Shown: positions 10,786 to 64,000 of the stretch, piece by piece
Position numbering within the stretch: the stretch's first letter is position 1
Layout: every line of letters begins with the position of its first letter
Assembly: GCA_004431415.1 (NCBI GenBank)
Contig: QPMI01000556.1
Span: 1 to 64,000 of the forward strand
Origin: Cyanophora paradoxa CCMP329
Lineage: Eukaryota > Plantae > Glaucophyta
Direction of reading: 5' to 3'
DNA: 64,000 bases
Made by a program: the position numbers and the translations under genes
Notes under the pieces: generated by a model
The model's input: only the letters and a program-made list of their open reading frames with translations
What the model was told of the DNA's origin: nothing
Databases searched by the model: none

Positions 10786-10806
10786 TTTGCCCTAGGTTCA
10801 GAAAAA

Positions 10807-13291: not shown

Positions 13292-13352
13292 AACTCTTCC
13301 CAAGTCCCAAGTCCAAGTCCCAAGTCCCAAGTCCCAAGTCCCAAGTCCCAGG
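13292..13352 (-). repeat. Third (GGGACTT)n heptamer array
   Basis: aactcttcccaagtcccaagtccaagt(cccaagt)n cccagg, with the same flanks as the other two arrays. Confidence 0.9.
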
Positions 13353-15056: not shown

Positions 15057-15260
15057 TTTTGCGATTGCGAGCATGGACAGGAAATATGAAAGCCCAATTG
15101 CAAGTGCGCACGTGCATGCGGGGCTTTAGCCAGAGAAGTATCGATGGCCATATCCTGTCGCTCGCGTCAGAGCAGGCAGGCGGCCACCGATGAATGAAAA
15201 GTCATCACGTTGAGGATAGGGGGAATTTCGCAATTCCAAGGCGATAGAGAAATGAGTATA

Positions 15261-17472: not shown

Positions 17473-18414
17473 GCGGAGAGATAGCCTAAGGTGGCTTAGG
17501 TGTGGCGGTAGAGTTTAGACTCTGCCCTGTCGGGCAAGATTTGCTTGCACTGGGTGTCCTTTATCAACTCTAACCGTCCCGGGCGGCTGGCGCACGCAGG
17601 TACGAGGCCTGGTCATCAAATCCCGGACAGGCGAGGTACGCGCGTGACCGCGGCAGCTCGCTCTGTTTCTGCTCCGTGATGACGTGCAGAGCTTCATCAG
17701 CGGGGAGTCGTTACGACGGGGCCGTCTACGGCGATTGCGAAGCGGGCGCACCTCAAGGTGGCCGGACATCGCGTGGCGTCAACGCCTGGGCCTCGTGTGG
17801 GCCAATAGTGCGAGGAAAGATAGAGTAAACGAATTCCGAACGTACCATAACCGCTTTGGATACTTCAGAAGGCGCGGTTTGAATTTCAGCATGCCGCATG
17901 GCGACATGGCGAGCTGAAGGAGCATCACGACAGTGCCGGAAGAACCTGAGCTCGGAGCTCATGAGTCTGCATATGCCGGAGAGCAAGAGGGGCACGCACC
18001 GAGCTTCGAAGCTTCACGGGTATGCGAATAGGAGGGGCGTGAACGCCACGGGGGTACGAGTTTAAACCCCGTTCATATGTATATGCAGTTGCAGCTGCGC
18101 TGCGCGCAGCGCATACGTAACGTGCATTCGTGCATTACGAGGTGAGCTCTGAAGTTCCTTCGAAATCTCGAACGGCAGTGAGATCTAGATTTATACTTCA
18201 AGGCTTGCAGAACTCGAGAGAGTACTATGCTCGAGGCTGAGCTTGAGCGGAATTCGAATGCTCAGGCAGCGCGTGCCATTATGTAATTTGATTCATAACA
18301 GCCGAGGCGCAGCGCGCGGCGGGGGGCGGCCGCGCGCTGCGCCGAGGCTGTACCCACCACTGACCCGACGGCGTTGAAGCCATCCGGCCGCGGCCTGCAG
18401 GGAATCGCGATTGG
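17473..18414. repeat. Repeat B' (copy of 14114-15056)
   Basis: Direct sequence identity. Confidence 0.95.
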
Positions 18415-18718: not shown

Positions 18719-19121
18719 TCATATATATATTGAGGGCGGGGGCGGGGCCGGGGCCCCGGGCTAGAGCATGTCCATGAGGTCCTCCATGCCCACCGCCGCC
18801 GCCTCCTCCTTCACCGCCGCCCCCCCCCCCCCCCCCCCCCCCCCCGCCCCCGCCGCCCCCGCCGCCTCGGGGCCGGCGCCAGCTTCCCGATGAACTACGC
18901 GCGCGCGCCCCGCCGGGCCCCGGCCGCGGGCCTGGCCCCAGGCCCCCAGCCCGCCGGCCCGGCCCGCCGTACGGTAGAAGGGATGACATTCAGCAACCCC
19001 GCCCCGGGGGGTTCAAGCGTGAGGGATTCAAGACTAGGAAAGGGCGGAGGAGGGCCGGCGCGGGGGCGGGGGCCCCGGGGCCCGGGCCGGCCGGGGGCGG
19101 CGGGGGGCCCCGGGCTAGAGC
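18719..19121. repeat. Repeat A' containing a diverged duplicate of the Ku80 terminal exon (18761-~18894, minus strand)
   Basis: Minus strand TAG|TTCATCGGGAAGCTGGCG...AVKEEAAAVGMEDLMDML*. Confidence 0.85.
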
Positions 19122-21068: not shown

Positions 21069-21100
<32 letters not shown>

Positions 21101-42320: not shown

Positions 42321-45248
42321 CCCCGCGATCCGTGCCGTTGCAACGAGCATTCACACCAGATCTAGACAGGCGGCGCCGTCCGTCAGCCTCGCGGCCAGAA
42401 CGGCGGCGCCGACCGTCGGACTCGGCGCCTCGTCGTTCGCCGGGACTCCGCTCTTCTTCACCGATGTTCCTGCAGCTGTCGACGTCCTCGGGAACGTCGA
42501 CGTCGCGGGCGGCAAGCAGCCGCCTCGCTGCATTGCCGGCAAGAGGAAGTCCGCCGGGACGAGCGCCCGCCGGGAGGTTCACGGTTTTTCACGCAAGACT
42601 TCTGCCGGCGCCGGAAATCCCCCCGAGTCTGGGCCCGAGAAGCTCAAGCCGCCGGAGAAGGTCCGGCCGCTTTCCTCTCCGCGAGTCCCCTCGCGCTTAC
42701 CGGGGGCCGGGCGGCGCAGGCTCCGGGAGAGAAGAAGTGCGGGGGCGGGCGCGTGCGGGCGGACCTGGGCCTGCGGGCCCTGGCCGACGAGTGGCGCCCG
42801 CTCCTCTCCTCCACCAAAGACCTCAAGAATGACGCCCAGGCACGTGCCGCGCGCTTACCAGGGGCCGACGGCCGCTGAGTCGCGCCCAGGCCGGCCTCAT
42901 CACGGCCTGCGTCTCCGTGCCCCTCTCCCTCGCCATCGGTGCGCCGGCCGAGTCGCCTGTGCGTGCGAGGCCGCCGTGACGCGGGCGGGGCGCGCGCGGG
43001 CGGCAGCGGTCGGCTCGGGCCTGCCGCCGGAGGTCGGCCTCGTCACCGCCGTCGTCGGATCCTTCGTCGCCGCCGCCGCCGGCGCGCCCCGCCCCGCCCC
43101 GCCGGCCCGGCGGCGGCTGACCCGCGCAGGGGGGACGCCGCTGGCGGTGAGCGGCCCGGCGGCGGCGATCGTGGCGACGTGCGCGGCGTGCGCGGCGGAG
43201 TTCGGCCCCGCCGGCGTCGCCCTCGTCGCCGCCGCCTGCGGCCTCCTGCAGGCACGCCGGCCCCCGCGCGCCCCCGGCCGCCCCGGGCCCCCCGCGTGGC
43301 TGAGGCCGCGGCGTCAGGTGCTCAGCGGGGCGCTCTCGCTGGGGGCGGCGGCGCGGCGCGTGCCGGTGCCGGTCGTGGCCGGCTTCACGTCGGGGATCGG
43401 CCTCACCGTGCTCCTCCAGCAGCTCCCCGCCGCCCTCTCCCTCCCGCGCCCCCCGGGCTCGCACCCCCCCGAGGTCCTCGCCCACCTCCTCGCCAACCTC
43501 CCCGCCGCCGACCCCGCCTCCCTCGCCCTCGCCTCCGCCGTCCGCCCCCGCCCCGCCCCGCCCGCCCCGCCCCGCCCCGCCTCACGCCCGTGCAGACGCT
43601 GGCGCTCATCTTCGCGCTCCCGAGGCTGGAGCTGCCCGTGCTCTCGCGGCTCCCCTCGACCCTCGTCGCCGTCGCCGCCGCCTCTGCCGCCGCCTCGGCC
43701 CTCGCCCTCGACGTGCCCCGCCTCGGCGCCATCCCCTCGAGCCTCCCCGCCCCGGGCCTCCCCGACATCTCCTTCCTCGCCCCCTCGGACCTGCCGGCCC
43801 TGGCGGGGTACGCCCTCGCCATCTTCGGGATCGCCTCCGTCGAATCGCTGCTCTCCTCGGCCGCCGTCGACAAGCTCTCCCGCGGCCGCTCCCGCCGGCA
43901 CGACCCCGACCAGGAGCTCATCGGGCAGGGCCTCGCCAACGCTGCGGCGGCGCTCTTCGGCGGCATGCCCGTCTCCTCCGTCGTCGTCCGCTCCTCCCTC
44001 AACATCCAGTCGGGCGCCGTCACGCGCCGCGCCGGCGTGCTCCAGAGCGCCGCCCTCCTCGCCGCGGTCTGCGCGCTGGGACCGGCCATGGCGGAGATCC
44101 CCGTGCCCGTCCTCGCCGGCGTCCTCCTCTCGGTCGCCCTGCGCATGCTCTCCCCCCACGAGATCCGGGAGATCTGGCGGGCGCACCGCCCCGAGGCCCT
44201 CCCCTGGCTCCTCACCGCCGCCCTCGTCGCCGGCGCCGACGTGATCGTCGGCGTCGCCGCCGGCGTCGCCGCCGCCGTCGCCCTCGCCGCCGCCGGCGGG
44301 CGCGGGGCGCCCCTCGCCGTCGAGACCCGCCTCGGCGTCGAGTTCGCGAGCCTCTTCCCCGCCCCCGCCGCCGCCGGCACCCCGCTCCCCACCACCACCA
44401 AGTCCGCCGCCTCCCCCGCCGCCGCCGCCGCCGCCGCCTCCCCGCCGCCGCCGCCGCCTCTGTTTTCGCCGAGAGCTCCGCCGCGAGCGTCCGGGAGGCC
44501 GTCGCGGCCGCGCGGGGCCCCGAGGCCGAGGGCGAGGGCGAGGGCGGCCGCGCGACGCCGGGGCCGGGGACGCCGGCCCTCAAGCCCGCCGACCTCTGCG
44601 ACGTCGTCCGCGTGCGCCCCGCCCCTCCCCGCCCGATCCCGAGCCCGCCCGCCCCGCCCCGCCCGCCCCGGGTCTGACGCCCGGGGGGCAGCTGGAGGGT
44701 GCGGCGACGTTCGCCTCGGGGCGGCCCTGGCGCGCCTGCTCGAGGAGCTCGCCGCCGCCCTCCGGAGCCCGGCGCCGGGGCCGCCGCCGCCGCCGGGCCG
44801 CCTCCTCGCGCCCCGCCCTCTTCGACCTCTCCGCCCTCGCCGCCCTCGACATCACCGGCGCCGAGCTGTGCGCCGCCCCGCCCCGCCCCCACCGCTCCCA
44901 GAGCCGCTCGGCCCGGCCGAGCCAAACCGGCGGGGCGGGGGCAGGATCATCGACGCGGTGGGGACGCTGATCGAGCAGGGGAAGCCGTGCGTGTTCGTGG
45001 GGCGAGCGCGGGGCGCGGGCGTTCCTCCTCGCGTGCGACCACGGGCGGCGCGTGCACGCCGTGGCGCACGTCGCCGGCCCCGCCGCCCTCGCCGCCGACC
45101 TCCTCCAGCGCCCCGACCAGATCGAGGTCCGCGCCCGCACCCGCCCGCACGCCCCAGCGCCGCCGTCCCCGGCGCCGGCCGAGCGGGGCCCGAACGACCG
45201 CGGCGCGCGCAGGGAGTGCTCCTCGACGCCCCCGTCGTCGTCCAGTAG
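42271..45248 (+). CDS. SulP/SLC26-STAS transporter copy 2 with a junction-derived N-terminus (MAFPPY...)
   Basis: Same exons as copy 1; ORF 42271 reads in frame across the junction; some indels. Confidence 0.7.
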
Positions 45249-48200
45249 CCGCGCATCTGCACCCGCTGCAGCTGCGGCTGCAGCTGGTCCGCGCACGCCG
45301 CGGATTCTGTTTAATTTCGCTTTTCTGTTTTTGCTTTTCTAAGCTAGGCTAGTGCACTTCAGCTTGTACGTCAAGCCCCCGCAGTACATCATGCCGGCGA
45401 CGCTGCTGCCTAATCCATGTAAAAACTCAACGTCCGACTCGGTACGAGGGCCGGCCGGCCGGCGCGCTTCAGCGGCGCCGTCCTTCGAATTCGCTGCTAG
45501 CGTGGCGCAAGCGCCGGCGCCGGTGCTGAATTCGAACTCGAGTCGGGGAGGGGTGCGCCCGAGGGGGTACAGGCGCGATCCGTCGCGCATCTTCGGCAGC
45601 GCCAACTTGCTGGGTGGCCAGTAGAGCCGCGCGCGATGGCGATGCAGCGGCGAGAATGAACGCGGGAGAGGTCAGGTCATCTAGCTAGGGACGCGGACGT
45701 GCCATGCATAGATTCGTCCCCGGTGCGTATACGGTCTCGATCATTGCAGGGAGAGATCGATGCGAGCAGCCTGTGATCGGCCCCGCAAACAGCGCCGTGC
45801 TGGAGCGCTGCGCGGGCGGGCGAGTCGGAGGACGCGCGAGACCTCGTCCGCGGCCGGACACCGCTCGCACGCGGTTGTTTGTCTGCTGGACATATCCGGT
45901 GCGTGCGATCACTTTACGCGCGCCGCCGCCGCCCAGAGCGCGTTTGCCGAAAGGGCACGTCGTGACCTTCCGCGCGCGCGCAGGCTTCTCAGGTCCGTGG
46001 CCAGCGATGCGGGCTGCGCCGGCCTCGGGAGACTGTTCTAATCAAGCTAGACGCATTCAGCATGCCGCGCGCGCGCGACACTCGCGCGGTCATGCATATG
46101 CCGCGCCGCACTTACCTCGCCGGCGCCGCGCAGCGCTGTGCGAGCGCTACAACGGCGCCGAGTCGTCGATCGAAGGTCGGCGCGCCGCGTTTCGCGTCGA
46201 GGGATCCGAGCTCACGCGCGGGCCCGCGGCAGAGCTGTGCGACCTTGTGAACAAGGCCTTCTGCAGAGAGATCGAGCTCGTGCAGAAGCACGGCGGCGAG
46301 ATCGTGAGCTTCCTCGGCGGTGCGCGCGCGCCCCTCTCCCTCCTTCCGCCCGCCCCGGCCATCCGCCGGCGGCTGACGCGCACGGTACGGCCCCTCGCGC
46401 ATCTCCCCCCTTCGCGTGCAGATGGGTGCGGGTCGCGCGTTTTGATTCCTTCCGTGTTGCCACTCCGCTGAAGAGACTGCAGGCTGCTGGTGTACTGGCC
46501 CCTGGGCGAGTCGGCGGAGGAGCAGGAGGGGGCGGGGCGGCCGAGGGCGGGGCGCGGGGCGCCAGGGCGGAGGGCGGCCTCTCGGGGCGGCGGCGGCGGA
46601 GATGGCGCGGCGGGCGGCGCAGGCCGTCTCCTGCGCCATCGAGGCGAGCGGGCCCGCCTGCGCTCCCCGCGGCCGGGCCTCGGGCTGACGCGTCAACAGG
46701 TGCAGGAGCTCTTCAGCGCGCTGCGGCTCGGCGAGGGCATGGGCCTTCGTCTCCGCATCGCCATCGCCGCCGGGCCCTACCGCGAGTGCGCCCCGCGCCC
46801 GCCCGCCCCGCCCGCCCCGCCCGGCGCGGCCCTCGGAGCCGACGCCGGGGCCTCGCGCGCGCGGGGGGCGCAGGTACTTCTGCGGGATCGGGGAGCGGGG
46901 CGTGCAGGAGGCTGCAGGGGGCGGCGGGGAGGCGGCGGCGGCGCAGCGGCGGGCGGCGTGGGCGGGAGCGGGGCGCGGGGGCGCTGGAGGGCGGAGCGAG
47001 CGGGGTCGCTGGACGGGGCGGGAGACTTCGCCGGCGTCCTCCTCGACGAGCAGGGCCAGGTCATCCGGGGTGCGCGGAGCCGCCGCCCCGCCGCCAGCGC
47101 CGGGCTCCCCTCTAAGGGCGGGCGGGGGCAGGCGGATGGTGTACTTCATCACGAGCGGGGCGATCCAGGAGGCGGGGGAGGCGCTGGGGCCATCGCGCCG
47201 GGCCAGGTCGCCGTCTGCGACTCGGTCTTCGCCTTCCTGCCCCGCGCCGCCCTCGCCGCCGGCGGGGCCCCGAGCCCCTCCTCTCCGCCTCCTCCGACGA
47301 GGCCGCCTCCGCCCCCGACGCGGCGTACCCCCGGCCCTCCCGTTCCCGTACCCCGGCGGCATCTTCTCCGGCGGCGAGGGCCGCTCGCCGCGGCGGGCGG
47401 GAGCCTGCGGGGCGGGGACGTGACGACGGGCCTGGCGGCGAGCCTGGCGGCCGGGGCCGGGGCGGGCGGGGCGGGGAGGGGCGGGGGCGGGGATGGGAGC
47501 ATGCCGGTGAGGGTGGCGAGCTTCCGCGACCTGGCCGGGGCAGCCTCCGCGGGGCGAGGCGGCGGGGGCCGGCGGCGGCAGCAAGCACGGCGGCTCGATC
47601 TTCGGCTCGATCTTCGGCAGCGGCGGGCCCCTCGGCGGCGCGGCTCCCTGGGCGCGCCCCCGGCCAAGCGCGGCGCCCGCACGCTCTCCCTGCCGCTCGG
47701 CGGCGGCGCGGAGGCGCGCCGCGGCTCGAACGCGTCGCTCTTCGGGCTGGACTCGGCGGCCTCGGAGAAAGGGGCCGTGGTGCTGGACGCCGCCGCCCGC
47801 GCCGCCTTCGAGACCTACGTCGCCGTCATGGGCTGGCGCCCCGCCGACGCCTCCCGCGGTGCCCACCCCCCGCACCGTCCCTCCCCTCTGTCCTTCGAGC
47901 CTCGAGCGCGCGCAGGGGGCGCGGTGGCGCCGCTGCGGCCGCACCAGCACCAGCCGCACCGGCGGCCCTTCAACATCGAGACCCCCGCCCCATCGCCCGT
48001 CCCCTTCGACGACGAGTCCGCCCTGCCCGCCCCGCCCCGATCCGCGCCGCTCTGATGTGGGGGCGGAGGGCGGAGAGCGCGGAGGCGCTGGTGGAGGGAT
48101 GGGGGAGGAGCAGCGGGCGCGCTGCTGCTCTACGTGCCCTACGCCGTCCGCGCCCGCGTCGAGCAGCTCGAGCGCCACGGCGCCGCCATCGGTGCCGCCT

Positions 48201-51200
48201 CCCCGCCCGCCCCGCCCCGCCCCGCGCCCTCCCTCTCGAGGCCTCCTAAACCCCCGCCCCGCCTGGCAGACATCGCGCGGTACATCTCGGAGTTCCGCGC
48301 CGTCTCCGTCATGTTCGTGAGCCTCGCCGCCCTCGACACGGCCTTCGGCGTCGTCCAGCACACCGTCCAGGCCCGCCCGCCCCGGAGGAACCCTCCCCGC
48401 CCCCTCCTCCTGCTCTGAGGCCCCTCCGGACCCGCAGACGCTGCAGGCGGTGCTGTACGCCCACCAGGGCTCCCTCCGCCAGGTCGTCCTCGACGACAAG
48501 GTACCCCCCCCCCCCCCCCCCCGGGGCCCCCGGCTCCCCGTGACGACGACGCGGGGCGGGGCAGGGCCTGGTGCTGATCGGTGTCTTCGGGCTCTGGCCG
48601 GTGGCCCACGAGGACGACCCCGTCCGCTGCACCGCCTGCGGCGCGCCCCGCCGCCCCCGCCCCAGCCCCGCCCCGCCCCCTACTCGGCCCTGACAAGCGC
48701 CGCAGCGCTGGACGTGGCGGAGGCGATGCGCTCCCAGCGCCTCAAGTCCTCCATCGGGCCCGCCTCTAATTTCCCGCTTTCCCGCCCCGCCCCGCACGAA
48801 CGCTGCTGACGCCGGCGCAGCGTCTCAACGGGCCTCGTCTACTCCACCTTCGGTCCGCGACGCCACTCCCCGCCCGCACGAGCGGTTCGGCTCCGCCGCG
48901 CCGCGCTCCTCCTCACGGGCGCGCAGTGGGGAGCCCGACGCGCTGCGAGTACTCCGTCTTCGGCACCGGTGCGCCCCTCCGCTCGCCGCTGGAAGCACTT
49001 GGCCCGCCTCGCTGACCCGTCCCCCTCCCGCCCGCTCAGTCGTGAACAAGGCCGGTGAGGCGGCGCCTCCCGATCCCACCCGCCTCGCCCGCCCCGCCTT
49101 GCCCGCCCGCCGCCGACGCCGGCGGCAGCGCGGCTGATGGCGATGGCGGACGGTGGCATCTTAGCTGACGAGGCCACCGCCGCCGCCGCGTCCGTCCCGC
49201 CCGCCCCGGCAGCCCCGGGCGGCCGCTGAGAGTCTGGTGCGGGGCGGGGCGCAGGGCGCAGCGGGTGCTGATGGTGCCGGCGGGGGAGGCGGTGCTCAAG
49301 GGCATCCCCGAGCCTGTCAAGCTCTTCCAGTGCGGCGTCCTGGGCCTCCTCCGCCCGCCCGCTCCGCCCGGCCCTGAGCGGGCGGGGCGGCAGGCCGCGG
49401 GCCTGCGGAAGGCCTCGTGGTGGAGCAGCGAGGACCCCGATGGGAGCGACGAGGAGGAGCGCCGCCGCCTCGCCCGCCGCCGCCCCGCCCGTCTGGCCAT
49501 CCCCCATGCTCGCCGGCCTCTCCGGCAAGCCCCCGCCCCCGGCCTCGCCCGCCCCGCTCGGCGGTGCCGGCGGCGGCAGCAACAAGAAGGCTGAGCGCTC
49601 CCGCCCAAGAAGCGGTCCGCCCCGGCAACTCGCCCCGTGCTCGCGGGGCGCCTCTGAGGGGCGGGGCAGCGGGTGCCGATGGTGGGGCGCGACGCCGAGC
49701 AGCAGCTCCTCGAGTCGGCTCTCGAGAAGGCCCGCCCGCCCGCCCCCGCCGCCCGCCCCTCCGATCCGCCTCTGACTTTAATTTGAGCGCAGCTGATGGG
49801 GGGCGGGCGGGGGTGGGAGGACGGGGCGGCCTCGGCGCGCTCGGGGCGCTCGGTCGGCTCGCACGTCTCCGTGGCCGGGGGCGGGGGCGCCCACAGCTCC
49901 CTCGTCCTCCTCGAGGGCGAGAGCGGCATGGGTGCGCCGGGGCCCCAAGCGGCGGCGCCGGCCGCGGCGTCCCAACTCCGTCTGAGGCGCGGGGGGCGGC
50001 AGGCAAAAGCGCGCTGCTGCGGGACTTCCGGAGCGCGGCGAAGCAGCGCGGCGCCGCCGTCGCCGCCAGCGTCTCCCGCTCCCACCACCGCCGCCAGCCG
50101 TCCGCCCGCCCGCCCCGCCCGCCCCGCCCGTCTCTGCCTGAGCGGCACCGGCGGCCAGGTTCAACGGGTGGCGGCACGTGCTGCACGCGCTCTTCCCCTC
50201 GGGGAGCTGCAGATGGCCCCTTCCTCGACCGCGACGGCGTCGAGCTCCTCCCCGAGCTCATGGCCGCCCTCGCCCTCGAGCCGCGCCCGGCGAGGCGCCC
50301 CGCCCCGCCGCCCCCGCCTTCAGCACCTCCCCGCCCTCCCTCGGCAACCTCGCGATCGCCGCGTTGGCGGCCCCGCCCCGCCCCCGGCCCCGCTCGTCGC
50401 CGTGACGGGCGATGGCGACGGGGACCCCGCCCCGCCCCCTCCACGGAGCCGACGGCGCTCCGCCTGCGCGAGCGCGACCGCGAGCAGGCGGCGGCGGCGG
50501 CCGCCGCCGCCGCGGGCCGGCCGGGCTGGCGACGGTGGCGCAGGCGGCGGCGGCGAGGGCGGGGCGCCCGGGGCGGAGAGCCCGCGGCGGAGGCGGCAGA
50601 GCCTGACATGGACGGAGGTGACGCCGGAGCGGGCAGGAGAGGGCAGGGCCGAGCACGAACGCGGCGAGCGCGAGCGGCAGCCGGCGGCCCTCGGGCGTGC
50701 CGCGCCAGCTCTCCAACCCTCCGTCCTCTCCGCCGCCACCCGCAAGCTCAGCCTCTCCCACGGCGGCGGCGCCGGCCCCGGCGGGCGCCCCGGGCGGCGC
50801 TGGCGGAGCGGACGGGCGAGGCGCGCTCGATGGGCCTGCGGGCGCTCATCGTGCGGCTCGTCCTCCGGCGCGCCGCCCTCGGGCCCGTCGTCCTCATCTT
50901 CGACGGCGCGCCCGCCCGCCCGCCCCGCCCGCTCGCCCGCCCCGCCGTCCCGTAACCAGCGGCGCACGCAGACCTGCACTGGGGGACTCGCAGACGTGGC
51001 TGACGCTGCAGGACCTCGTGGCGAGCTGGAGGAGGCCGACGCCGCGCGGCTCCTCCTCGTGGCCGCCCTGCGGCCCCGCAGGCCCTCTCCGTCGCCGGCC
51101 GCGCCCTCCAGCGCCTCCGCCGCAAGCGCGCCGCCACGACGCTGGCCCTGCAGGCCATGCGCCTCGCCGACGCCGAGGAGCTCGCCGCCAGCGTCCTCCG

Positions 51201-54200
51201 CGCCCGCTCCCTCCCCCGCCAGCTCGCCTCCTTCGTCTGTGCGCCCCGGAGCCCTCGTCCTCCCTCGCCCTCCTCCACTCACGCCGGGGCGCGCGCGCAG
51301 ACGAGCAGTCATCGGGGATCCCCTCGGTCGTGATCGACGTGGCGCAGGCGCTGCAGGAGAACGGCTTCCTGCAGGTCGCCCCAGCGGCGAGGTCCAGCTC
51401 CTCAAGTCGCTGCGGCCCGTCAAGCCGACCGACGCCGTCCGCTCGGCGCTCTGCAGCCGCCTGGACCGCCTGGAGGCCCGCAGCTGCTCGTCCTGAAGCT
51501 CGCCGCCGTCGTCGGCGGCGCTTCACGTGGCCCGAGCTGCTCGCCATCCACCCGGCGACCAAGGCCGCCTACGGCGTCGTCGCCCCGCACTCCTCCGGCG
51601 AGCTCGCCGCATCGCCAGCTTCGTCGCCCGCCCGCCCCGCGGCCGCCCGCGCCCGCAGGCGGTTCGAGCGGCCGCCGGCGTCGGCCCCGCCGGTGCGGCG
51701 GCGGCCGCGAAGGAGTCTCTGGGGCGGCGATCCTCGAGATGGAGCACGCGCTCGCGCCCTCTGCGACCTCCAGATCCTCGTGCCCCCTTTCTCTCGTTTC
51801 CCCGTGGCCTCCGGCTGAGCGCGCGGGCAGCGGGACGTGTCCGGGAGGAGCGGGGCGGGGCGGGGCGGCCCTGCCGGCCTCCACCACGCCCGCGCCCACG
51901 CCAAGTCCGAGTGGTGCGCCCCGCGCTCAGTTTACTCCCAAGGACGGGCTCTGCTGAAGGAATGCCGCGCCGCCCGCAGGGAGTTCGTGCACGCGACGAT
52001 GCATGAGACGACGTACAGCCTGCTGCCCGTCGCCGAGCGCCGCGGCCTCCACCGCGCCTCGCCCTCTGGCACGAGCGCCGCTTCGCCCGCGCCCTGCTCC
52101 TCGGCTCCGGCCCGCCGCCGGCTCGGCCGTCGTCGTGGGCCTCGGGGCCGCCTCGCCGGCCAACTCGCGGCCGGCTCGGCCCGCCGCGGGCCCGCCCGAG
52201 GCGGCCGCGGCCCCGCTGCACGCCCGCGTGCAGGCCCTCGCGGGGAGCGAGGCGGCGAGCGGCTCTGGCTCCCGCCGCTTCGAGGCCGGCGCCGGGCGGC
52301 GGGGAGCGGCGGGGCGGGGAGGGCCGGCGGCGCTTCGCGCAAACGGACCTGGCGCTCCTCTCGCACCACTTTCTCAACGCGGGGAGTACGAACAGGCCGG
52401 GCCCTACCTCGAGCAGGCGCCCCGCCCCGCCCCGCCCGAGCCCGAGCTCCAGCTCCGGGCTGAGGCGGCGCGGGCAGTGCGCGCGGGCGGCGCTGGAGGC
52501 CTACGCCAACGTCGAGGCCTCGCGCCTCTACGAGGACCTGCTCCGCGTCAGCCCGCAGGCGCCGCCCTCCAGCGCGCCGCCTGGCTCCGCGCCCGCGCCG
52601 ACGCCTCCGCCGCTCTGGGTGCGCCCGTTCGATAGAACTCGAAAGACCTCCGCCGCCCGCCCGCTCACGCTCAGGCCGCCTCGGGGCGCGGCAGGCTCTT
52701 CGCCGAGGCGGTGCAGTGCGCGCGCGAGGGCCTCGCCCTCCTCGGCCACCCCCTCCCCTCGTGCGTCCGCCCGCCCGCCCGCCCCGCCGCCCCGCGCGCC
52801 TTAGCCGCGGTGGGCGCAGCGGGGAGGGGGCGCTGGCGCTCCGCTACGCGCTGCTGGAGCTGCGGCTGCGCTTCACAGAGGCCCCGACGCAGCGGCCCTC
52901 GCCGCTGGCCCCGGGCCCGCCGCCGCCCTCGACGCCCGCCTCGCCGGCGGTGGCGGCGGCGGCGGCGGCGCGGCAAGCGGCGCTCGCTGTGGGACATCCT
53001 CTGCTGCCGCCGTCGCCGGCCGCAGTGCGTCGACGACGGCGAGGGCCGCTGCTCGGTCCGCCCGCCCCGCCCCGCCCGCCGCCCCGCGCGAGCTCGCCTC
53101 AGCCCACGCGGCCCCGGCAGGTGGAGGCGGCGCGGGAGGCGTGCCGGCTCTACTGGGCGACGATCAGCGCGCGTGGGCGACGCACCACCGCCGCCTCTTC
53201 CTCTACGCCGCCGCCCGCATGCTCGACCTCGCCGTCGCCCTCGCCGAGGCCGGCCCCGAGCTCGCCGCCGCCGCCGCCGCCTGGGCCGCCGTCTCCGGCC
53301 TCCAGCAGCGCCGCGAGGCCGCGCGGGCGTGGGCGCGGCTCGCGTGGGGCGTGGCGGTGCGGCTGCAGGACGCGGAGGTCTGGTCGGGCGTCGTGGCCTT
53401 CGTGCCGACGGCGATGCTGGCGGTGGAGGACCTGGAGGCGGCGGAGGGATGCTCCAGAGCGCCGCCCAGCTCTTCTCCCGCACTTCCTCCCTCCGCGACT
53501 CCCTCCGCGCCTCCCTCACCCTCTCCTTCGTCGTGCGCGCTGCCCGCCCTCCCCTTCCGCCCGCGGCGTCGCCCGCGGCTGACCGCGCGAGCCCCGCTCC
53601 GCCCGGGCAGCACCTGCGGGCGCCGCGCGTCTCGGCCGACGAGCTGCGCGCCGGCGCGCAGGCCATCCGCGTGCGCACCGCCGCCCCCGCCGCCCGCGCC
53701 GCCGCCCTTCTGAGCGGCCCGGCAGCGGGCGCTGGAGAAGAGCGCGCGGTATCCCGACCTGATCGAGGACGGGGAGCGCGTGGCGGCGCAGGCGGCGTGG
53801 GCCCGCGCCATGCTCGCCCTCGACCGCGCCCCCAACGCCCTCGACGGTCCGCCCCTGGGCCCGCCCGCCGTCCCCCGACTTTCTTCCGTCTGAGGCGCCT
53901 GGCGGCAGCGCTGGAGTCGTTCGACCAGCAGTGCCCGGCGCGCAAGGCGGGCCCCGCGGAGCGCGCCGCCTTCCTCGCGGCGTACGGGCGGCCCTGCTGG
54001 CGATGAACGGGCCCGGGGCGCGCACGTGGACGACCGCCGCTCGCCGCCGTGGCCGTCGAGTGCGTGGAGGCGGCGCTGGAGGCGGACGCGGGGCGCACTT
54101 CTTCGCCGTCGCGGAGCCCCTCGCCACCGCTGCCTTCCTCCTCTACACCCTCCGCCTCGCGTCCGCCCCCTGCCCGCCCCCGCCTTCCTCTCGCCCTCGT

Positions 54201-55817
54201 CGAGCCTTGCCCGCGCGCGCAGGCTGCTGCCGGTGGAGCGGGCGCGGGCGCACCCGGCGCACCCCCTCCTCGAGCTCTTCACGGAGGGCCCGCGCAGCCG
54301 CGCCCCGTCGGCCGCCCGCCGCGCCCAGCAGGCGGCCGGGCGCCGGGGACGCCACTCTCTGCGGGGGACGGGGCCGGTGAGCCGTCGTTCATCCTCCCGT
54401 CGGCGCGCGCCCTGGCCGTGCGGCGGCGCTCGAGCGGCCTTCTGGTAGCCCCGGCGGCGGACGCGGGGGCGCTCCTGGCGGCCCTCGAGCGGGCGGCCCG
54501 GCGCCTCGCCGCGCTCGACGGCTTCGGCCTCGTGCGGCCCCTCGCCGCCTACGCCCGCGGCCTCCTCCACTCCGCCCGCGGTGCCCACCGCCGCGCCCGC
54601 GCCTGCTTCGCCGCCGCCGCCGCCGCCGCGGCCGCCGGCGGCGCGGCGCAGGCCGTCCCTGCGGGGGCGCCGGGGGTTGGTGCGCGACGCGGGGCCAAGG
54701 GGACGGCACCTCGCTGCACGGCGGCTCGGTGTGGGCGGCGGTTCGGCAGCGGCGGCGGGGACGGCGGGTCGGTGCGGGCGGGCGGGGGCGGCGCGGGAGC
54801 CGCTGGCGGCGCTGCAGCGGCGGCTGCGGGCGGGCGCGGCACCCGCGGGACGAGGGCCTCGCGCTCCTCTTTGCCGCCCTCCACGCCCCGCGCGCGCCCC
54901 GCCCCGCGCCGCCCGCGCCGCCGGCGGCGGCGGCGCTGTACGCGGTGCGGGAGCGGCTGGCGCCGGTGTCAGCGGCGAGCTCGGGCGACCTCCTCCTCGC
55001 TAGCGGCGACGCCTCGACGCCCTCGCCCAAGGGCGGCGCCCGCCCCGCCGCCGCCCGCGCGCCGGCCGCCGCGGGAGGCGGGGACGGAGGCGGGCGGCTG
55101 CTGGGGCGGGCGGAGGGTGCTTCGAGGCGTGCAGCGACCTCTACATGGCGCGCGCCGCCCGCCGCCTCGCCGCCCTCCTCGAGGGCGGCCCCGCCCCGCG
55201 CCCCGCGGCCGGCCCCGAGGAGGCCCCCGGGAGGGCTCGGGCGGGGAGGCCTCGGGGGCGAGGAGCCCTGGGCCGCGGCCGGGGACGCCCGCCCCTCGGT
55301 CCGCTTCCGCGTCACGCGCGTCGAGTCCCTGGGCTCCGCCGCCGGCCCGCGGCCGGCCCCGCGGCGGAGCGGGCGGCGCCAGCGCCGGCCCCCCGGCGCC
55401 GGCACCACAGCAGCGGCAGCCTGCGGGGCCGTCGCCCGCCGACCCCGCCGCAGCCGCGGCGGCCGTGCGCCGCCCCTCCGACGCCCCCTCCGCCGCCCCC
55501 TCCGACGCCTCGGAGCTCGTCCCGGAGCTCGAGCTCGCCTGAGGCCCCGATCCGCGCGCCCCGCCCCGCGACTTCGTTTGTGGTAGACGTGTCTCGTGAC
55601 TCTCGTCCCTTCTTTGACGTGTCAGCCCGCATTATAGATGAATGCATTCATTTGCTTTCACGAGGTTCGGTAGATACCGCAGATTGTCTTTTAGATACTA
55701 GATACCGCTTTTATGTTGCCTCACGATCCTGTCTGCAGCTGTAGGTCGTTGCAGCCTTTGTTCCATCATGGCATTTCCCCCTTACACACTCGTATCATTT
55801 TCAATACAAGCTCAGCG
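42318..55817. repeat. Tandem segmental duplication, copy 2 (~13.5 kb; many 1-bp deletions in G/C runs)
   Basis: Junction with 3-bp GCG microhomology; ends at ctcagcg 55817. Confidence 0.95.
45704..55542 (+). pseudogene. sAC-like cyclase copy 2, frameshifted as assembled (pseudogene or consensus error)
   Basis: Near-identical to 32087-42045 except for numerous single-base deletions. Confidence 0.6.
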
Positions 55818-57252
55818 TTTTGAGGCAGACGTATGGTGTATTGGCAAGCTCAGCTCGTGCTGCTTTTTGGTAGATGCATGGCACTTTCTTTTGTTGAGTA
55901 CGTCATATTCGATTCGATGATCTCTATAATTTTAATTAATTGAAGTTCTAACGCGTACGTGCATGGGATGCAATAGCTCTGTGGCTTCTAGGCTAGCGCC
56001 ACGTACTACGGTATTACGCGGTAGCTCGGGTCGCACGTGCGTGACTCGCGATCGGTGACGTCTCGGAGGAGTCGGAGCTCGAGTCCGGATCCGAATCGGA
56101 AACTCCAACTTCTCTTCAAGAGTCCGAGTCAAGACTTAAGAGTCTTCAAGGGCTTCAAACTTACTGGTAGTTCAAATACTTCAATTGCGAGTCGCGACTC
56201 GCGACTCGCGACTACCGGCGGTATGATGACTCACTGAGTCAGTGATTCGCGAGACTCTCAGACTCCGGACTCAGACTCTCAGAGTCTGATGAGACGACGC
56301 GAGTTACCACTGCTTACCAGTAGATAACTTTTTAGTAACTAGCTTGGCCCAAGTTGGATTCAATGATTAGCGACGTCGACAGACCATTGACCATTTGCAA
56401 GCTGGAATGAGTCACAAAGCTTAAGCTAAGTCAATTGCAACGCATCACGGCGTGACGTCGACACACGGTGCCACGGTGCGCTACGAGTTATGGCTCTATG
56501 GCGCGATTTCCGCCAAACAAACCTTTTTCCGAGTCAAGTTGATTGACTCAACTCGGCAGAGCTCTCGACCAATGGCCGCCCGGTGCCCGGTTTCGAGTCA
56601 AATTAGTGTTGCCAGGTGCCCGCGTTTTCCCCGTACTAATTCGACTTGAAAATGCCAGTGTTTTCTGATTGGGCACGTGACGGTATATTTCGCATGCTAT
56701 ATAAAAGCTGCTGTTGGCAGTTACTAGGCGGCGGTTACTAGGACTGTACCAGGTAGCTACTAGAACCATACCAGGTAGCTAATTTACATAAGGGCAGGAT
56801 CTGCCAGTTTCGCCCATGGCCAGGAAATTTTCTTCCTAGGCGCCAACTCGTAGCGGTGACAAGTTGAACACTGACAACACTCAGTGACTGAAAAGTCAGT
56901 GTTGAAGTCAACGTACCACGGTGGCTTATCGCCGCCGAGAGTCATCGCCGACTCATCGGTACCCGGTACCTTGGCACGCGTACGCGTTGGCATCAACTTG
57001 GCACTGACTTGGCAGTGTTGGGCACTGTACATGTTAACGTTGGCAGTTCAACGGTTTGCAATCGGCAGCTGCAGTGACTTGGCACATCATGCCGCACACG
57101 ACAAGTTGACAACCTAGAATTCGACTTTGGTTAGACATTTGCTAAAATGAGCCCCCGAACCGTATCTGCTGAATTGAATCATGATCAGTGACTCAGTGAC
57201 TGTGCCACGGTGTGTGATCATGCCATGCATATGATGAGTTTTTGTCAACTTT

Positions 57253-57535
57253 ACACATAGTAAAATGCGGAGTTTTAACCCTCGGCTTATCTTAATTGAT
57301 TTTGTTGATATATCTCGTATATTCTATTTCAATCAATCGTTAATCTGTGTATATCTTATCGAATATTCATTTATTTCGTTTATTTTGTATTCTTTTCGAT
57401 ATTTTATCGTAAATTTCTCTTATTTTCCGATTAGTCTTACTGAGTCTATCGATAATCTGTATATATTTCCGAATAATATAACTGAATCTCAATTAGATCT
57501 TGCCTCTGGTTAAAACTCCGCATTTTACTATGTGT
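57253..57535. mobile_element. MITE-like 283-bp unit with perfect 28-bp terminal inverted repeats
   Basis: acacatagtaaaatgcggagttttaacc (57253-57280) and ggttaaaactccgcattttactatgtgt (57508-57535); AT-rich interior; no clear target-site duplication. Confidence 0.7.
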
Positions 57536-57786
57536 GATTGGTCTGTTTGTTAATTGATTTAATCGATATTATATTCATGTACTTTCTCGATTAAATTTAA
57601 TTAAATTTAATTCATTTAATCGGAAATATATCGCTAAACTCGATTAAGATCCATAAATGATTCATTTGTTAAATAAAACAAATCGATCTCTTATTGAATC
57701 CAATCGTAATTATACATGAAACTTATATGTTTTTATCATGTTTTAATGATTCTAAGGGGGGACCCTTAGGATTTTTGAAATAATTG

Positions 57787-57889
57787 GGTGTGACAGGTGT
57801 GACAGGTGTGACAGGTCCATCCCAAGGAAAGTCCTAGTGAGAAATTGATTTTGAAAATCCACGGGATAGACCTGTCACACCTGTCACAC
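57787..57889. repeat. Inverted 9-bp iteron-like repeats, (GGTGTGACA)x3 ... (TGTCACACC)x2
   Basis: Seen directly; ~55-bp spacer. Confidence 0.8.
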
Positions 57890-58435
57890 ATACCATATTC
57901 AGTAAGGACCTCATTCATTGTTAAAATCTCAGTGTTAGTTGGTGTAGTTGATTCAAAAAATGCATTTATACTCTGATTCATTGTTATTTCCTGTGAAATT
58001 TGAGTCAACTCAACCCACTTAGTCAACCCTTGCATTGAATTCGTAACAAAATCCATATACTATTACTACTTTTACGATTAATATGAGTCAACCTTGAGTC
58101 CACTTAAATATAAATATAATATAATAGGGGGAATCAAGGGGAGATGCTTAGAAACATATGAATTATTGAGCCTATGATACTTACATAGTCACGCTGGTCT
58201 CGTTAAGAGGATTCCGAATCTGGTTTTATCTTTGTAAGATGATGAGTTGGTGAAGAGATACATGCATTTTAGTGTTTTGTGTGGGATTTCATGTTATGAC
58301 GTCATAATGACGATGCATATGTATATGATATATATGCCATACCACGTGACTCGGGAGATTATGACGATCACGGCGATATGTTCATTGTCGTGATGTATAT
58401 GTATATATATGCGGTGCAATCTGATTGGCGGATTG

Positions 58436-58682
58436 ATAATTCGTGGTAGAAACCACTAGCTTAATTATAATTCGTGGTATAAACCACTAGCTTAATTATA
58501 ATTCGTGGTAGAAACCACTAGCTTAATTATAATTCGTGGTAGAAACCACTAGCTTAATTATAATTCGTGGTAGAAACCACTAGCTTAATTATAATTCGTG
58601 GTAGAAACCACTAACTTAATTATAATTTGTGGTAGAAACCACTAGCTTAATTATAATTCGTGGTAGAAACCACTAACTTAAT
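58436..58682. repeat. 31-bp tandem repeat x8 with internal hairpin
   Basis: Unit tcgtggtagaaaccactagcttaattataat starts at 58441, 58472, 58503, 58534, 58565, 58596, 58627 and 58658. Confidence 0.95.
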
Positions 58683-58699
58683 AACAAAGAGATTTAAAC

Positions 58700-58790
58700 T
58701 GTTATTTTATAGGTTATTTTATAGGTTATTTTATAGGTTATTTTATATGTTATTTTATATGTTATTTAATATGTTATTTAATATGTTATG
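58700..58790. repeat. 12-bp tandem repeat (gttattttatag-like) x~7
   Basis: Seen directly. Confidence 0.9.
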
Positions 58791-59032
58791 GATAATGTTG
58801 GGGGTATAGTGTATCTGTTATGGATAATGTTGATAAGTTTCGTCGAAGTTTCGGTATTTCGATTGTCGGCATCTTCAAACGCTCGTATCTCATTACCAGA
58901 TTACGAACTCGCAACGTTCTGCATAGCGTTGTGAAGCGCTTGATAAGCTCTACAAGACTATGTGTATATCATGGGCATATATGTATATCAGTCATACATA
59001 TATTTGGAAAAAACGAGTTTTCGGCTATGAAA

Positions 59033-60417
59033 CTAGCTAGTTTTGGTCCTTTCTCTTAGTGTTCTTTGAGGTTTAGGGGCTGTATATGACTCCTTAGTAG
59101 TCTGAAAGTCATTATACCATCTCTGGCTATTTACTTCAGAAAGTTTCTGTGTCCCTGCTATAGTGAGCTTTTTGAGTTCCCTGTTAACTTTCCCAGTCTT
59201 CTCCTTTCTAGCCTCTATCAAAGGCTTATCTGGGACTTCATTAGCAGCTTCTATGCCTTCTCTCCTTATAGCAGCATCAGCCCTGGCTTCCTCTTTAGCT
59301 TGCTCCAAGGCATCCACTGTAGGGGTTTCTAGATATTCAACTGCATTCACAGGCAACAGCTCATGGAAAGCAAACCTGTTTTCTATGATCTCACCAGTGG
59401 GACTCCTTAGCTTAAACTTAAAGCCTTCCCTACTATCAACAGTGTAAACCATCCTAGACCAATTGTTACCCTGTTTAGCAAAGGGGTTCTTCTCAACTTT
59501 CACTCTAACAAACATGCCAGGCTGCATGGTATCAAGGTAAGCTATTGATTTCTTGAATCTTTCATCTTCTAATCCCACTATATACCTATAATGCTCCTCT
59601 GTAGTTTCGCCTGGCTTCATCTTAGTAGCTGAGTGAACTGTATTATTGTAATTATACTCAATATCACCTAACACATCAAAGAATCTAGCTGTGTTATTAG
59701 CTATGCAATAGTTTGTGATCAGTCTCTTAATCTGCTTGTTAAAGGCTTCAATTCGACCTTGGCTTCTATGGTCAGCAGTTCCACTCACTTGGTGTTCTAT
59801 GAATTTACTAGATAAATACTCCTGGAATATTCGATTTTGGAATTCACTCCCAGCATCTGATTGAACTTTTACTATGGGTCTTGCCACTCTCATTTCAAGC
59901 TGTTTAAATGCAGCTAATGTAGTGAGAGCTGATTTATCCTTATAGGTATGATATACCCAGTTCTCAGTGTAGATTCCATTGCAGTCATAAAGGTATCATA
60001 GCCATTGTTTTGTTTCTTATAAGCTGGGAAAAAGAGCAAATCAATCACATAGGTATCAAGGGGTTGCCTAATTGGGACCATGGGATCTCTCTTCCTAGAT
60101 ATAGCAGGTGCATTGATCTGAACAACTTCTTGTTTTTTATAGAACTCTTGCAACTGCTTATAGGATTCATCAGGTAACTCAGCCCTCATAGCTTGAAGCC
60201 CTTTGTAACCAGTTCTCACATCATAGAATCTCTTGGCAATCTTGCTGGTTTCTTTCACTGCAATAGCAACTGGGATCTCTACTGGGACAAGCTCTTTCAT
60301 CTCTGACTTTTTTACAATTCGAGATTCTCCCTTTTCCTCCTTGGGAACTGTGATAGGCAGTAGGTTACCTTGTAGTTGCTCAGTGGTTCTCCTAACTATT
60401 CTTCCAGTTGCTGGCAT
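59033..60417 (-). CDS. Polinton rve (DDE) integrase; single frameshift near 59940
   Basis: FYDVRTGYKG; YVIDLL (D1); KQNNGY; IPI(KDKS); QSDAGSEF (D2); GRIEAFNKQIK (E); YNNTVHSATKMKP; no obvious C-terminal chromodomain. Confidence 0.93.
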
Positions 60418-60420
60418 CTC

Positions 60421-63400
60421 TTAATTAAAAGGAACAGAATTAATACCATCTGGTAAGATGTATCTCTTTGCATCAAAGCAGTTTAGGGCAACCCTTTTAC
60501 TCACAGTGTCTATTATTGTGTGATCTGCCCTTCTTTTCTGCTTTGCAGTCACAGTCTTGCTGATACCTGCAAATAAACACTGTTTAAAATCATTAAATTG
60601 GAGTTCCTCAGTTGAAGTCCCAGAGAGCTTACTCCTCTCAATCTCAGCAGTTCTGAAACTGTAAACTTTAGCTCTCAGACCCACATACTCCAATATAGCA
60701 GAGCCAGGCATTTCATTTTTGTATTTACCTGGGGTCATTCTGGAATCACCTCCAAGGTCTAATGCATAGGATATATTCTCTATATCTTTTTGTAGGGTCT
60801 TAGATTCGATATATAGACAAAAGGAGTCAGTATCATGGAATAGTAACTTTGCTTTTGTCCATTGGGACCTTACAGTATCATAGAAGAACTTGTAGTTATG
60901 CAGTTTGGCTGCATCCAGAACATAAGCCCCAATAGCAACTGGCTTATCTAGCTTCACATGCTTTGTGTAAAACTCAAAGGCAACTGCTTTTTCGTTTATG
61001 GGACTTGTTGATTTCACCAATGGGGAGGCTGCATATTTCATAAACAGTTTCTCACTGTTTGCAATCTTAACCACAGATCTACCTCTGCAAGATTCAATGC
61101 ATTTCCCATAGATTGAGTTATTCATGAGTTTATAGAAATCAGCCTCGAATTTATTCACTGCTTTCCTTCTCATCTCAGTATTCAGCTCAATGTAGGGTTT
61201 CATTACAGGAGCCACAGTAAATGATAGGACCCTGTGAACCTTCTTTAGTTTCACCCCTTTGTCCAACAGATACTGTAGAAGAGGCTCAGAAATCACATAG
61301 TTGGTCACAGAACCAAAGGTTGCAGTTAGCTTAGGGGTCTTATCAAGCTCTTCTCCTGAGAGATCTAATAGGCTCTTTTGCTATTGTGATAATTCTGCAT
61401 ATTCTACTATTTTCTTGTTAATAATTAGGGGGAAATCACTGTGGTCTAGATATAGCCTAATTGGGTAATCCAGATCAACTTCCAGGAAACTGGATCTGTT
61501 ATCTTGTGGGTTGAATTCGGTCTCCCATCTAAAATCACCAACTGGGATTGGCTGACTCAAACAGTAGCCATACAAGTTGTTAGCATCAAACAGCATTATA
61601 TGGGAGTTCTCACCATCAGCCTCAGCATACCTACAAGGCATTGTTGCAAAGCCACCCCTGATTCCCCTCTCAACAAATTCGTATTGCTCTACATCACTTA
61701 TAAGCTCTATTTTGCCTTGGTGTCCTAAGCATAGCATCCCAAGATAACCCAGGTGCAGATACATAATGAACTGGGTCCAATCCATATACTGAGTGTGAAA
61801 GCCTTCTGAAAGCCTGGAATTTGCTCATTAACTCATCTACATCAGCAGCCCCAAAGTCCATAAAATTACTTGCATCAATGAACTTGTAAAGACCCCATTG
61901 CAATGAAAGGTATTGATCAAAGTTTTTCGAAAGGATTTCGATTCGCTTTTTATCACCCATGCCTGCTATTTTTCTGAAAATGAATGTCCCACAGTCATCC
62001 ATTTGGTCAACAACCACTGCTACTTTTGTTTGCTTTGAGATTCTCCTATGGAGATTGCAGTTTCTGCATGCAGGTGCAATGTAATTACCTGTGTGGTGAT
62101 CATGATCCCTGCATTTGAAGTTTTCCTTGGTGAACCTCTCACTGCAAAGGTAACAGTGTTTGGTAGCTCTGTAAATAGCCTTTTGCTCATCTGTGAGTTC
62201 ATTCATGGAATATTGGTGAACAGGAAATCGATTAGCTCTCTTGCTTTGGACTCCAAGCATTCAAACAGACCTCCCATTGGATCCTGACCCTCAAATCGAA
62301 ACTCCTGAACATCTGCCCCAGTGACTATTCTAATGTTGACTGCTGAGACTTCCCTCTTGGATTTCGATGCATCAATGGGATGCTTCTATGTTCAATCTTG
62401 CAGTAAACCACAACAGGAAGCCAGACAGTTTTCCTGAGGTTTTTCAGTCCAAACTCTATTGTGGTGTCAGGCTTAGGGTGATTCCCTTTGAGAGTCTCCA
62501 ATCAATGCATCTGTTTGAGTCCACATGAGCAGTGAGTTTAGCCTCAGACCTGAATCGAGATAAGCATGTATCACAGTAGTGTAACTTTTGATCCTTGGTT
62601 TTATCAAGGGCAACTCTGAGAAGTCTTGAAAGGACATGATAGTAATATAGTGACCATTCCCTTCATCATCATGAATGAGCATTAGATTAATCTTTTGCTT
62701 TCTGCCTGGGTTGCTGGATTGATGTAGGGATATATAACATCTCCATCCATTCCAAATATGTTTATGCTGATGCCTGCATTTTGAGATTCGAATTTATCAA
62801 TGATTTCAGCATCACAAGGAACAGGGAATGGGATATTGTCGAAATTGAGAGCCAAAGGATTGTATGTGGTTGGTGAGTATTTCCATTTGCGATATTGTGT
62901 AAGCTCACTTCTCTTGTGGGAATTTACATCTTTCCTATGGATCCATGCCAAAATGGCATTTTCAAAGCAAGAATCATCAATATTTCGAATATTCACTGTG
63001 GCTCTCTTGGCTGCAATTGATTCTGGTGTTTTAACATAGCAGCCACCAGTTGGGCATAACTCATAATAGCAACTCTTAGCATTTCGATTCTCTCCAATCG
63101 ATAGCTATCAACAACATTCATCTGTTCCTGACACATTTGGGCTGCTTTATTCAGCTCAGTTCGAATATTTCTCGATTTGGTTAATACAAAATAATCGCTG
63201 TAAATGTATTTCGATATCCAAACCTGTGGATTGCTGACTTTTACGAACTTGCAGATAAACGACAAGCGAACTTTGATTGCCCTGAATTGATCCAGACTAT
63301 CTCTTAAACGTTTTGGTAGAGAGGTTGCAATTCTATCTAAATATTCAATCACATCTACCACAACTTCCCTTCTGGCTCTGTATGTGAGCCAGCGATATAA

Positions 63401-63618
63401 TTCATTCATGGCTGTTCCATCTTCTGCCTCTGGTTCTATTTGCCTCAGGCGATCGAGTTCATCAAGAGTCTCAACTTTGTCATAGAGGTTATTGGCTTTT
63501 CTGGTTAATTTTGCTAAAGTGGGTCTGCCCTTGAAATAAATCCGATTTCCGGTCATATTCAGCCTCTGTGATTTCATGGGCTGCATACAGTGTTCCCAGT
63601 AATCCCATAAGTTCCCAT
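60421..63618 (-). CDS. Protein-primed family B DNA polymerase (terminal-protein-like / vOTU protease / degenerate exonuclease with Endo VII insert / polymerase); several frameshifts; start approximate
   Basis: NIRNIDDSCF...GHYITI; CYLC...RDHDHHTGNYIAPACRNCNL; YGLDPVHYVSAPGLSWDAML; RGIRGG; FDANNLYG; KLMNNSIYGK; HDTDSF; GLRAKVYS; ALNCFDAKRY. Confidence 0.95.
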
Positions 63619-63764
63619 TTCTTCTCTCTAATGAGTCTGTTGCTAATTCGGGGCATAGTTCCTAACTTGTTCCTACTAAAAGGGAGGTTTTAAATGGGGA
63701 ATTCTGAACACAAAATTTGATGAAAACTACTTAAAGAAATATCTTCTATATATATAAAAGGACA

Positions 63765-64000
63765 ATGGCAGAGAAGAAATCGTATTGCCTGGAAAAGCTC
63801 AAAGCGGCTTTAATGTTGCTTTGTGGATCTGATAACTTCAATGATTATGTTGCTCTTGGAAGTAACAGGAAACCGCTCCCTCTTTGGGCAAAGCTTGCAA
63901 AATATGGATTAAGTGACTATGACCTGCCTCCAGAGTCTGAGCATTGCGCCTGTGATCATCCAATTAAAGAGCAATGCTATATTCTGCATGTTAATAAAAA
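63765..64000 (+). CDS. Hypothetical viral protein with Cys/His motif, truncated by window end
   Basis: Open frame MAEKKSYCLEKLK...EHCACDHPIKEQCYILHVNK; divergent from pPolB; TATATATAAAAG upstream. Confidence 0.6.
   Translation, partial: MAEKKSYCLEKLKAALMLLCGSDNFNDYVALGSNRKPLPLWAKLAKYGLSDYDLPPESEHCACDHPIKEQCYILHVNK

Follow-up and report, generated by a model that had tools for sequence, protein, structure and literature searches.

Maverick/Polinton elements and the Polinton-like viruses (PLVs) of protists carry a protein-primed polymerase adjoining a retroviral-type (rve) integrase, are low in GC within a GC-rich host, and occur in many copies; PLVs of Cyanophora paradoxa itself are mentioned in the accessible text of PMC12220804. 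These features recur in an element at positions 59033-64000 of the DNA analysed here, the first 64,000 nucleotides of C. paradoxa contig QPMI01000556.1 (the window). Judged by its genes, this element, hereafter the Polinton, appears to work like a Maverick/Polinton seen from one end only, and its capsid, packaging ATPase and protease region would lie past the window, its terminal repeats likewise falling outside. Unlike known PLVs, it has jointly lost GTAC, GGCC, GTGC/GCAC and non-TCG CpG, a combination found in 0 of 24 related loci. Our best reading, advanced tentatively, is that host CG methylation together with avoidance of the host's GTRC splice donor (R, purine) shaped the words of the Polinton. 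Its genes within the window are as follows.

59033-60417, minus strand: rve integrase gene, split between two frames by a break near 59937
60421-63656, minus strand: protein-primed family B polymerase gene (PF03175, E 4.8e-5; PF02945, E 3.5e-5)
63765-64000, plus strand: start of a divergent gene that continues past the window end and has no Pfam match

A sequence-only reading of the window had reported that the Polinton lacks GTAC despite many GTA trinucleotides, and both counts stand: the last of the window's 218 GTAC sites is at 57579, and GTA occurs 58 times on the plus strand of 59033-64000. Its GC content of 38-39% gives way to a measured 40.0%, and its expectation of about 15-17 sites agrees with base composition (17.9, or 35.8 as both-strand counts) but drops under stricter models. 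A second-order Markov (trinucleotide) model expects 7.4 sites (z -3.2, third lowest among 136 words), and codon-usage-preserving shuffles of the 4,236 coding bases expect 9.9, with 0 of 1000 shuffles reaching the observed zero. The deficit therefore persists in both of the controls which that reading had proposed, and the absence of GTAC is genuine. Among the 40 variants listed, 18 fall within 58880-64000; one, taken singly, would create GTGC at 58974 and none creates GTAC, which is uninformative since only about 0.7 would be expected.

GTAC is, however, not singled out, as had been supposed. GCAC/GTGC is more depleted (3 against 24.8 expected under the second-order Markov model, z -5.4), GGCC is absent (0 against 7.5), and CpG stands at 0.20 of expectation, whereas GATC, AGCT, CATG, TGCA and TCGA occur at normal counts. 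The earlier observation was thus genuine yet framed too narrowly, overlooking both the CpG loss and the match of the lost words to host splice donors. When 1,433 gapped four-letter patterns were screened, GCAC/GTGC ranked first; TG.CA and others followed near z -4 to -3, possibly as multiple-testing noise. The losses persist on the sense strand in 296 constrained shuffles in which the protein, codon usage and every CG context were fixed (observed/expected: GTAC 0/9.3, GTGC 0/9.4, GCAC 3/7.4, GGCC 0/4.5). Pooled as GYRC (Y, pyrimidine), 3 words remain against 26.1 expected, and the minimum over all these shuffles is 15. In codon terms, a valine codon before C is GTG or GTA in 0 of 15 cases, and an alanine codon before C is GCA in 3 of 9, the usual rate. 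A mutational path from GCGC through GTGC to GTAC was considered and rejected, as it would increase GTGC and GTAC.

These shuffles also bear on the possibility that the bias is inherited or incidental, acquired in an earlier host or arising from codon-pair and AC/GT bias, with GTAC loss as a by-product. The Polinton has 40% GC within a 77% GC neighbourhood, AC/GT and GAC/GTC stand at 0.75 and 0.74 of expectation on both strands, and the nearest polymerase with sequence is just 49-50% identical, all of which would suit such an origin. Nevertheless, no constrained shuffle approached the observed 3 GYRC words, and the Polinton family is repeated in the host and so multiplied there; we consider this explanation improbable. 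Within 59036-63520, the codons GAC (15 of 82 Asp) and GTC (8 of 88 Val) are both rare; the GAC/GTC deficit is strand-symmetric, and codon-preserving shuffles mask a deficit of this kind.

The three survivors of the GYRC class are all GCAC on the sense strand.

60108-60111, plus strand: GTGC retained, read as GCAC (Ala-Pro) on the coding strand
61753-61756, plus strand: GTGC retained, read as GCAC (Ala-Pro) on the coding strand
62074-62077, plus strand: GTGC retained, read as GCAC (Ala-Pro) on the coding strand

All three have one common 8-base context, an Ala-Pro codon pair containing an E-box-like hexamer.

The CpG loss divides the Polinton into two parts.

59033-63200: CpG-purge core, with TCGA 18 (15.0 expected), TCG-B/V-CGA 7 (70.5) and V-CG-B 0 (82.6)
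63201-64000: 5' ends of the two divergent genes, where CpG is partly back and GTAC, GTGC, GCAC and GGCC are not

In the core the loss is strand-symmetric and multiplicative, and the class ratios of 1.2, 0.10 and 0.00 are those expected for independent loss on each strand if TCG is spared. Across the Polinton, RCGY remains once and YCGR 24 times, where 46.9 of each would be expected; mammalian DNMT3 favours RCGY over YCGR (PMC4810514, citing Handa and Jeltsch, in the accessible text). In C. paradoxa, CG methylation has been reported at 32%, enriched on repeats and virus-derived genes, which would account for a CpG-poor repeated viral element; the same text reports CHG at 0.73% and CHH at 0.53%, near a non-conversion rate of 0.2-0.3%, and lists two DNMT1 and one DNMT3, with no orphan DNMT and no PF01555 N6/N4 methyltransferase (PMC12344493, accessible text). 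That text gives dinucleotide, CHG and CHH levels, and the sparing of TCGA is a feature of the Polinton which it does not describe.

We regard the CpG loss as a probable footprint of host methylation. CpG would have been erased or avoided since the host methylates CG on repeats, presumably with a methyltransferase that spares TCG. A point that weighs against this is that the left viral region (positions 1-13700, described below) and other repeats in the window keep their CpG. Passive decay within the host chromosome is therefore not enough by itself; long selection, or the fixing of deaminated 5-methylcytosine while the Polinton replicates, would be required. TCGA-sparing CpG loss was found in 0 of the 24 related loci, and in our literature search, which lay mostly outside subscription journals, we found no report of CpG loss in protist Polintons.

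The remaining lost words largely coincide with the donor cores of host introns, as first seen in one gene.

19115-23331, minus strand: host Ku80-like gene with 24 introns, the source of an unbiased donor set

Its 24 protein-guided introns begin with GTGC (9), GTCC (4), GCGC (4), GCCC (3), GTAC (1) and others (3). A larger set of 70 donors adds 11 from a transporter-like gene (hand-adjusted from 14 parsed), those retained from the parsed introns of three further genes (5 of 15, 24 of 49 and 5 of 9) and one RNA-supported intron; it is partly hand-picked, introns judged false having been removed, and may be biased. It comprises GTGC 31, GTCC 11, GCCC 9, GCGC 7, GTAC 3, GCAC 3, GTGA 1 and GTAA 0. 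Host introns in 19115-42045 thus mostly begin G-Y-[G/C/A]-C, with a GC start in 21 of 70, C at +4 in 64 and C at +6 in 58, and GYRC makes up 14 of the 24 protein-guided donors and 44 of the 70. The RNA-supported intron (84 bases, starting GTGCGC) is spanned at 56152-56736 by a spliced RNA-type contig in two runs, in single-copy host DNA of 49% GC without a long reading frame. RNA-type contigs come from runs marked 'RNA?'; on host genes their joints are mostly spurious and only long pieces are usable. Such unusual donors suggest altered U1/U6 pairing; Rfam gave no match, hence no host U1 or U6 for comparison, and the literature search found no description of a Cyanophora donor consensus.

In the reading that we favour, two separate pressures are likely to have acted, CG methylation being the first. 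Under the second, the sense strand is likely to have been cleared of GTAC and GTGC, as G-T-purine-C would be the host spliceosome's strongest 5' donor core and sense-strand GTRC would open false introns in the Polinton's long intron-free genes, which are presumably transcribed in the nucleus and prone to splicing at GTRC sites. Canonical donors, rarely used by the host, are plentiful on the Polinton sense strand (GTAA 15/11.3 and GTGA 30/18.0, observed/expected in the constrained shuffles). GTGC counts are 0/9.4 on the sense and 3/7.4 on the antisense strand, and all three GYRC survivors fall in the sole class that is not a sense GT donor, for which the chance at a symmetric site is about (7.4/26.1)^3 = 0.02. 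An exonic G precedes the donor in 9 of 11 GTCC and 9 of 9 GCCC introns, and is missing from 17 of 31 GTGC introns; this pattern agrees with GTGC and G|GCC being lost while plain GTCC and GCCC are not. Loss of GCAC/GTGC occurs in 0 of the 24 related loci, where the lowest ratio is 0.69.

The evidence against the splicing part of this reading is substantial. First, host exons tolerate the words in question (GTAC 18/16.0, GTGC 40/29.4, GCAC 32/28.6); they do avoid sense-strand GTCC (28/60) and GGT (62/98.8), whereas the Polinton avoids neither GTCC (8/5.6) nor GGTCC (3/0.9). Pressure may, by argument, be weaker on short host exons with competing true donors than on an intron-free frame of 3 kb. 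Second, a 9-position donor matrix detects no significant sense-strand deficit in the Polinton, giving 12 against 17.0 at the loosest threshold (P 0.08) and none at the others. Third, GTAC makes up just 3 of the 70 donors, and A or T at +5 occurs in only 1 of 70, yet GTACA and GTGCA are both absent from the sense strand. GCAC, not a GT donor, is also somewhat low (P 0.037), and repeat-free non-coding DNA holds 1 word of the lost type where 5.3 are expected. Finally, related loci do not generally avoid canonical donors (GTAAG 0.99, GTGAG 1.21; 28 loci).

A close rival is restriction avoidance. The excised Polinton would multiply during giant-virus infection of the cell, and unprotected sites for the endonucleases of that virus, namely GTAC, GGCC and perhaps CG palindromes, would have been lost. 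Giant viruses encode restriction-modification systems, and PLV methylases have been proposed as protection (accessible text of PMC7253447 and PMC12220804). The comparison covers the 24 related polymerase loci left after removal of five same-contig duplicates and loci under 4 kb. Judged by eye, 8 of them have purged palindromic tetramers in the way that restriction avoidance would. In three (L005, L037 and L038) the GTAC ratio does not exceed 0.17, and L037 and L038 also lose GGCC, as the Polinton has done completely. L037, with the same polymerase-integrase order as the Polinton, has GTAC 0/24.4, AGCT 0/24.4 and GGCC 1/8.6; L038 has GTAC 1/20.8, GATC 0/32.1 and GGCC 0/5.1; and L005 has GTAC 0/4.4. 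In a quick tree the window's polymerase pairs only with P0002, and the purged loci are scattered, which marks the trait as labile. Among these viruses GTAC avoidance thus recurs and is an ordinary trait, whereas the GTGC loss and the CpG pattern are particular to the Polinton. The literature search found no paper on GTAC avoidance.

Among the eight purged loci, all environmental (L005, L015, L025, L026, L028, L034, L037 and L038), the palindromic tetramers lost differ from locus to locus and may reflect which restriction enzymes their partner viruses carry. Chlorovirus enzymes target GTAC, GATC and RGCY. L038 is virophage-like, with a virophage-type capsid and a D12-class adenine methylase (330-1103), and has no GATC in its reading frames (0 against 32).

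The earlier suggestion that a helper virus restricts GTAC thus has a precedent in related loci, and restriction explains the loss of GGCC better than splicing does. However, the loss is not confined to palindromic sites. Non-palindromic GTGC/GCAC, the strongest non-CG loss in the Polinton, is purged in none of the relatives and would have to be put down to another cause or to a degenerate enzyme that cuts GYRC (we know of no four-base GYRC enzyme); non-palindromic CG words are lost too, and GATC, AGCT and TCGA are kept. Neither a giant virus nor a nuclease of this host was identified, and Pfam searches on 14 and later 103 reading frames of the left viral region gave no methylase or nuclease family. 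One virophage that was examined proved unmethylated, and the authors saw no role for methylation in that system (PMC7253447, accessible text), which also counts against restriction. As the cause of the GTAC and GTGC loss, restriction is almost as likely as donor avoidance, and the two can act together.

The sequence-only reading had also considered a cause in the host, proposing a GTAC-specific genome mark on the ground that GTAC is conspicuously common in host DNA. This holds for non-coding DNA, where GTAC is enriched 2-3-fold over dinucleotide shuffles (introns 10 against 3.1, intergenic DNA 12 against 5.5), and not for exons, where 8,079 bases hold 18 sites against 16.0 after codon shuffling and tyrosine TAC follows G and C equally often (18 each). 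The regions concerned are listed here.

1-13700: second virus-like region (the left viral region), frame-broken, 59% GC, with a Peptidase_S74 segment, CpG 1.10 and 81 GTAC
15277-16672: 137-bp satellite with four GTAC per unit
23645-25568, plus strand: host nucleotide-sugar-transporter-like gene, labelled from reading its translation, which holds the GTAC cluster cited before

GTAC was said to be abundant in the left viral region, which is so against dinucleotide shuffles (81 against 30.0) and becomes ordinary under a trinucleotide model (75.9). The four sites per satellite unit are as described, although they represent one amplified unit and not independent sites. About ten sites had been reported in 24140-25200; there are 11. 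On our reading of the gene model, 4 are tyrosine codons preceded by G, 1 is a splice donor and the other 6 lie elsewhere in introns. At almost every non-donor intronic site in 24149-25198 a run of C follows GTAC on the sense strand, and these sites resemble spare donor motifs. The host enrichment is modest, partly unexplained, and shows no mark by itself. Avoidance by the Polinton is borne out as word-specific selection or mutation; with loss reaching beyond GTAC and no exonic excess, a mark specific to GTAC is unsupported.

A broader form of the idea is that a host mark or reader on GYRC (GTAC, GTGC/GCAC and GCGC) seeds silencing which the Polinton escaped, by non-CG cytosine methylation or by a methyl-GCGC reader that also accepts thymine look-alikes. 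GYRC is self-complementary and almost purged, the CpG purge is proof of a process acting on the Polinton at the DNA level, host non-coding DNA and repeats are enriched in GTAC, and the reported CHG and CHH levels slightly exceed non-conversion, leaving room for a rare motif (PMC12344493, accessible text). On the other hand, GYRC is still absent where CpG returns, its survivors all lie on one strand, exonic GTAC shows no excess, and the methyltransferase complement reported for the host includes neither an orphan DNMT nor a PF01555 enzyme. In a nanopore survey covering C. paradoxa, N6-methyladenine lies mainly at ApT in AMT1-encoding species (PMC12695648, accessible text). It is accordingly unlikely that Cyanophora chromatin marks or reads GYRC alongside a TCG-sparing CG methyltransferase, with the Polinton escaping and GTAC-rich satellites and silenced viral inserts as natural targets. 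The SBP-box/CRR1 copper response of green algae and plants offers a eukaryotic protein family that reads a GTAC core, but SBP proteins are reported absent from glaucophytes (PMC7455551, accessible text) and would leave the loss of GTGC and GGCC unexplained; SBP binding was rejected as the cause.

The family to which the Polinton belongs is repeated. In two DNA runs, 1,752 and 1,220 contigs match 55500-64000, and contig depth, about 116 and 90 in the flank, reaches up to about 3,700 and 2,900 in the Polinton (depth, not copy number), a difference which points to repetition. The polymerase has 202 homologues; the best is P0002 at 49% identity, and the other listed matches, some carrying names from insect and spider genomes, lie at 34-38%. 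The PF03175 match is on a fragment. The integrase match to PF00665 (E 0.0023) is weaker than the curated cut-off; 3,619 relatives were found at E<=0.001 and none in searches of viral contigs. The integrase is 77% identical to P0122 (463 aa), and by eye its upstream frame looks like the N-terminal part of that protein. Polymerase and integrase frames are both interrupted by one-base shifts, and at these breaks the remaining contigs of the family show a single-letter difference. RNA-type contigs of low depth span 60790-61592 without a joint and are too weak for use. At 63745-63765, TCTA and the AT run after it, ending about 17 bases before the divergent gene start, resemble a giant-virus late promoter on one four-letter match.

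Two repeated features lie between single-copy DNA and position 59033, the provisional limit of the Polinton.

57253-57535: small repeated element bordering single-copy DNA, resembling a miniature inverted-repeat transposable element, its inverted ends being 47 bp long
57538-59032: repeated end region without coding sequence, containing tandem arrays of 31-bp and 12-bp units and the last GTAC (57579), with CpG at 1.11 (not depleted)

RNA-type contigs continue past the end of the former into different sequences, a sign that it is inserted elsewhere as well. Elsewhere in the window, the exon at 21133-21459 is 99% identical to a EukProt protein labelled Cyanophora paradoxa. Two near-identical direct repeats of about 0.9 kb flank the 137-bp satellite at 14114-18410, like a non-coding element bounded by long terminal repeats. 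A tandem duplication of about 13.5 kb (28700-42190 and 42318-55690), which may be real or an assembly duplicate, contains a sulfate transporter and a long adenylate/guanylate-cyclase-like gene, so labelled by our own reading.

In summary, word avoidance is ordinary in viruses, and what is unusual here is the set of words lost. From the sparing of TCGA in the CpG loss, the host methyltransferases are predicted to favour certain flanking bases. If the restriction reading is true, the Polinton points to an unknown glaucophyte giant virus and to the cut sites of its enzymes. If the splicing reading is true, a viral genome has been reshaped to a host spliceosome with a non-standard donor (GY-R-CG-C, 21/70 with a GC start), which would matter for transgene design in glaucophytes and is testable with existing genome and RNA data.

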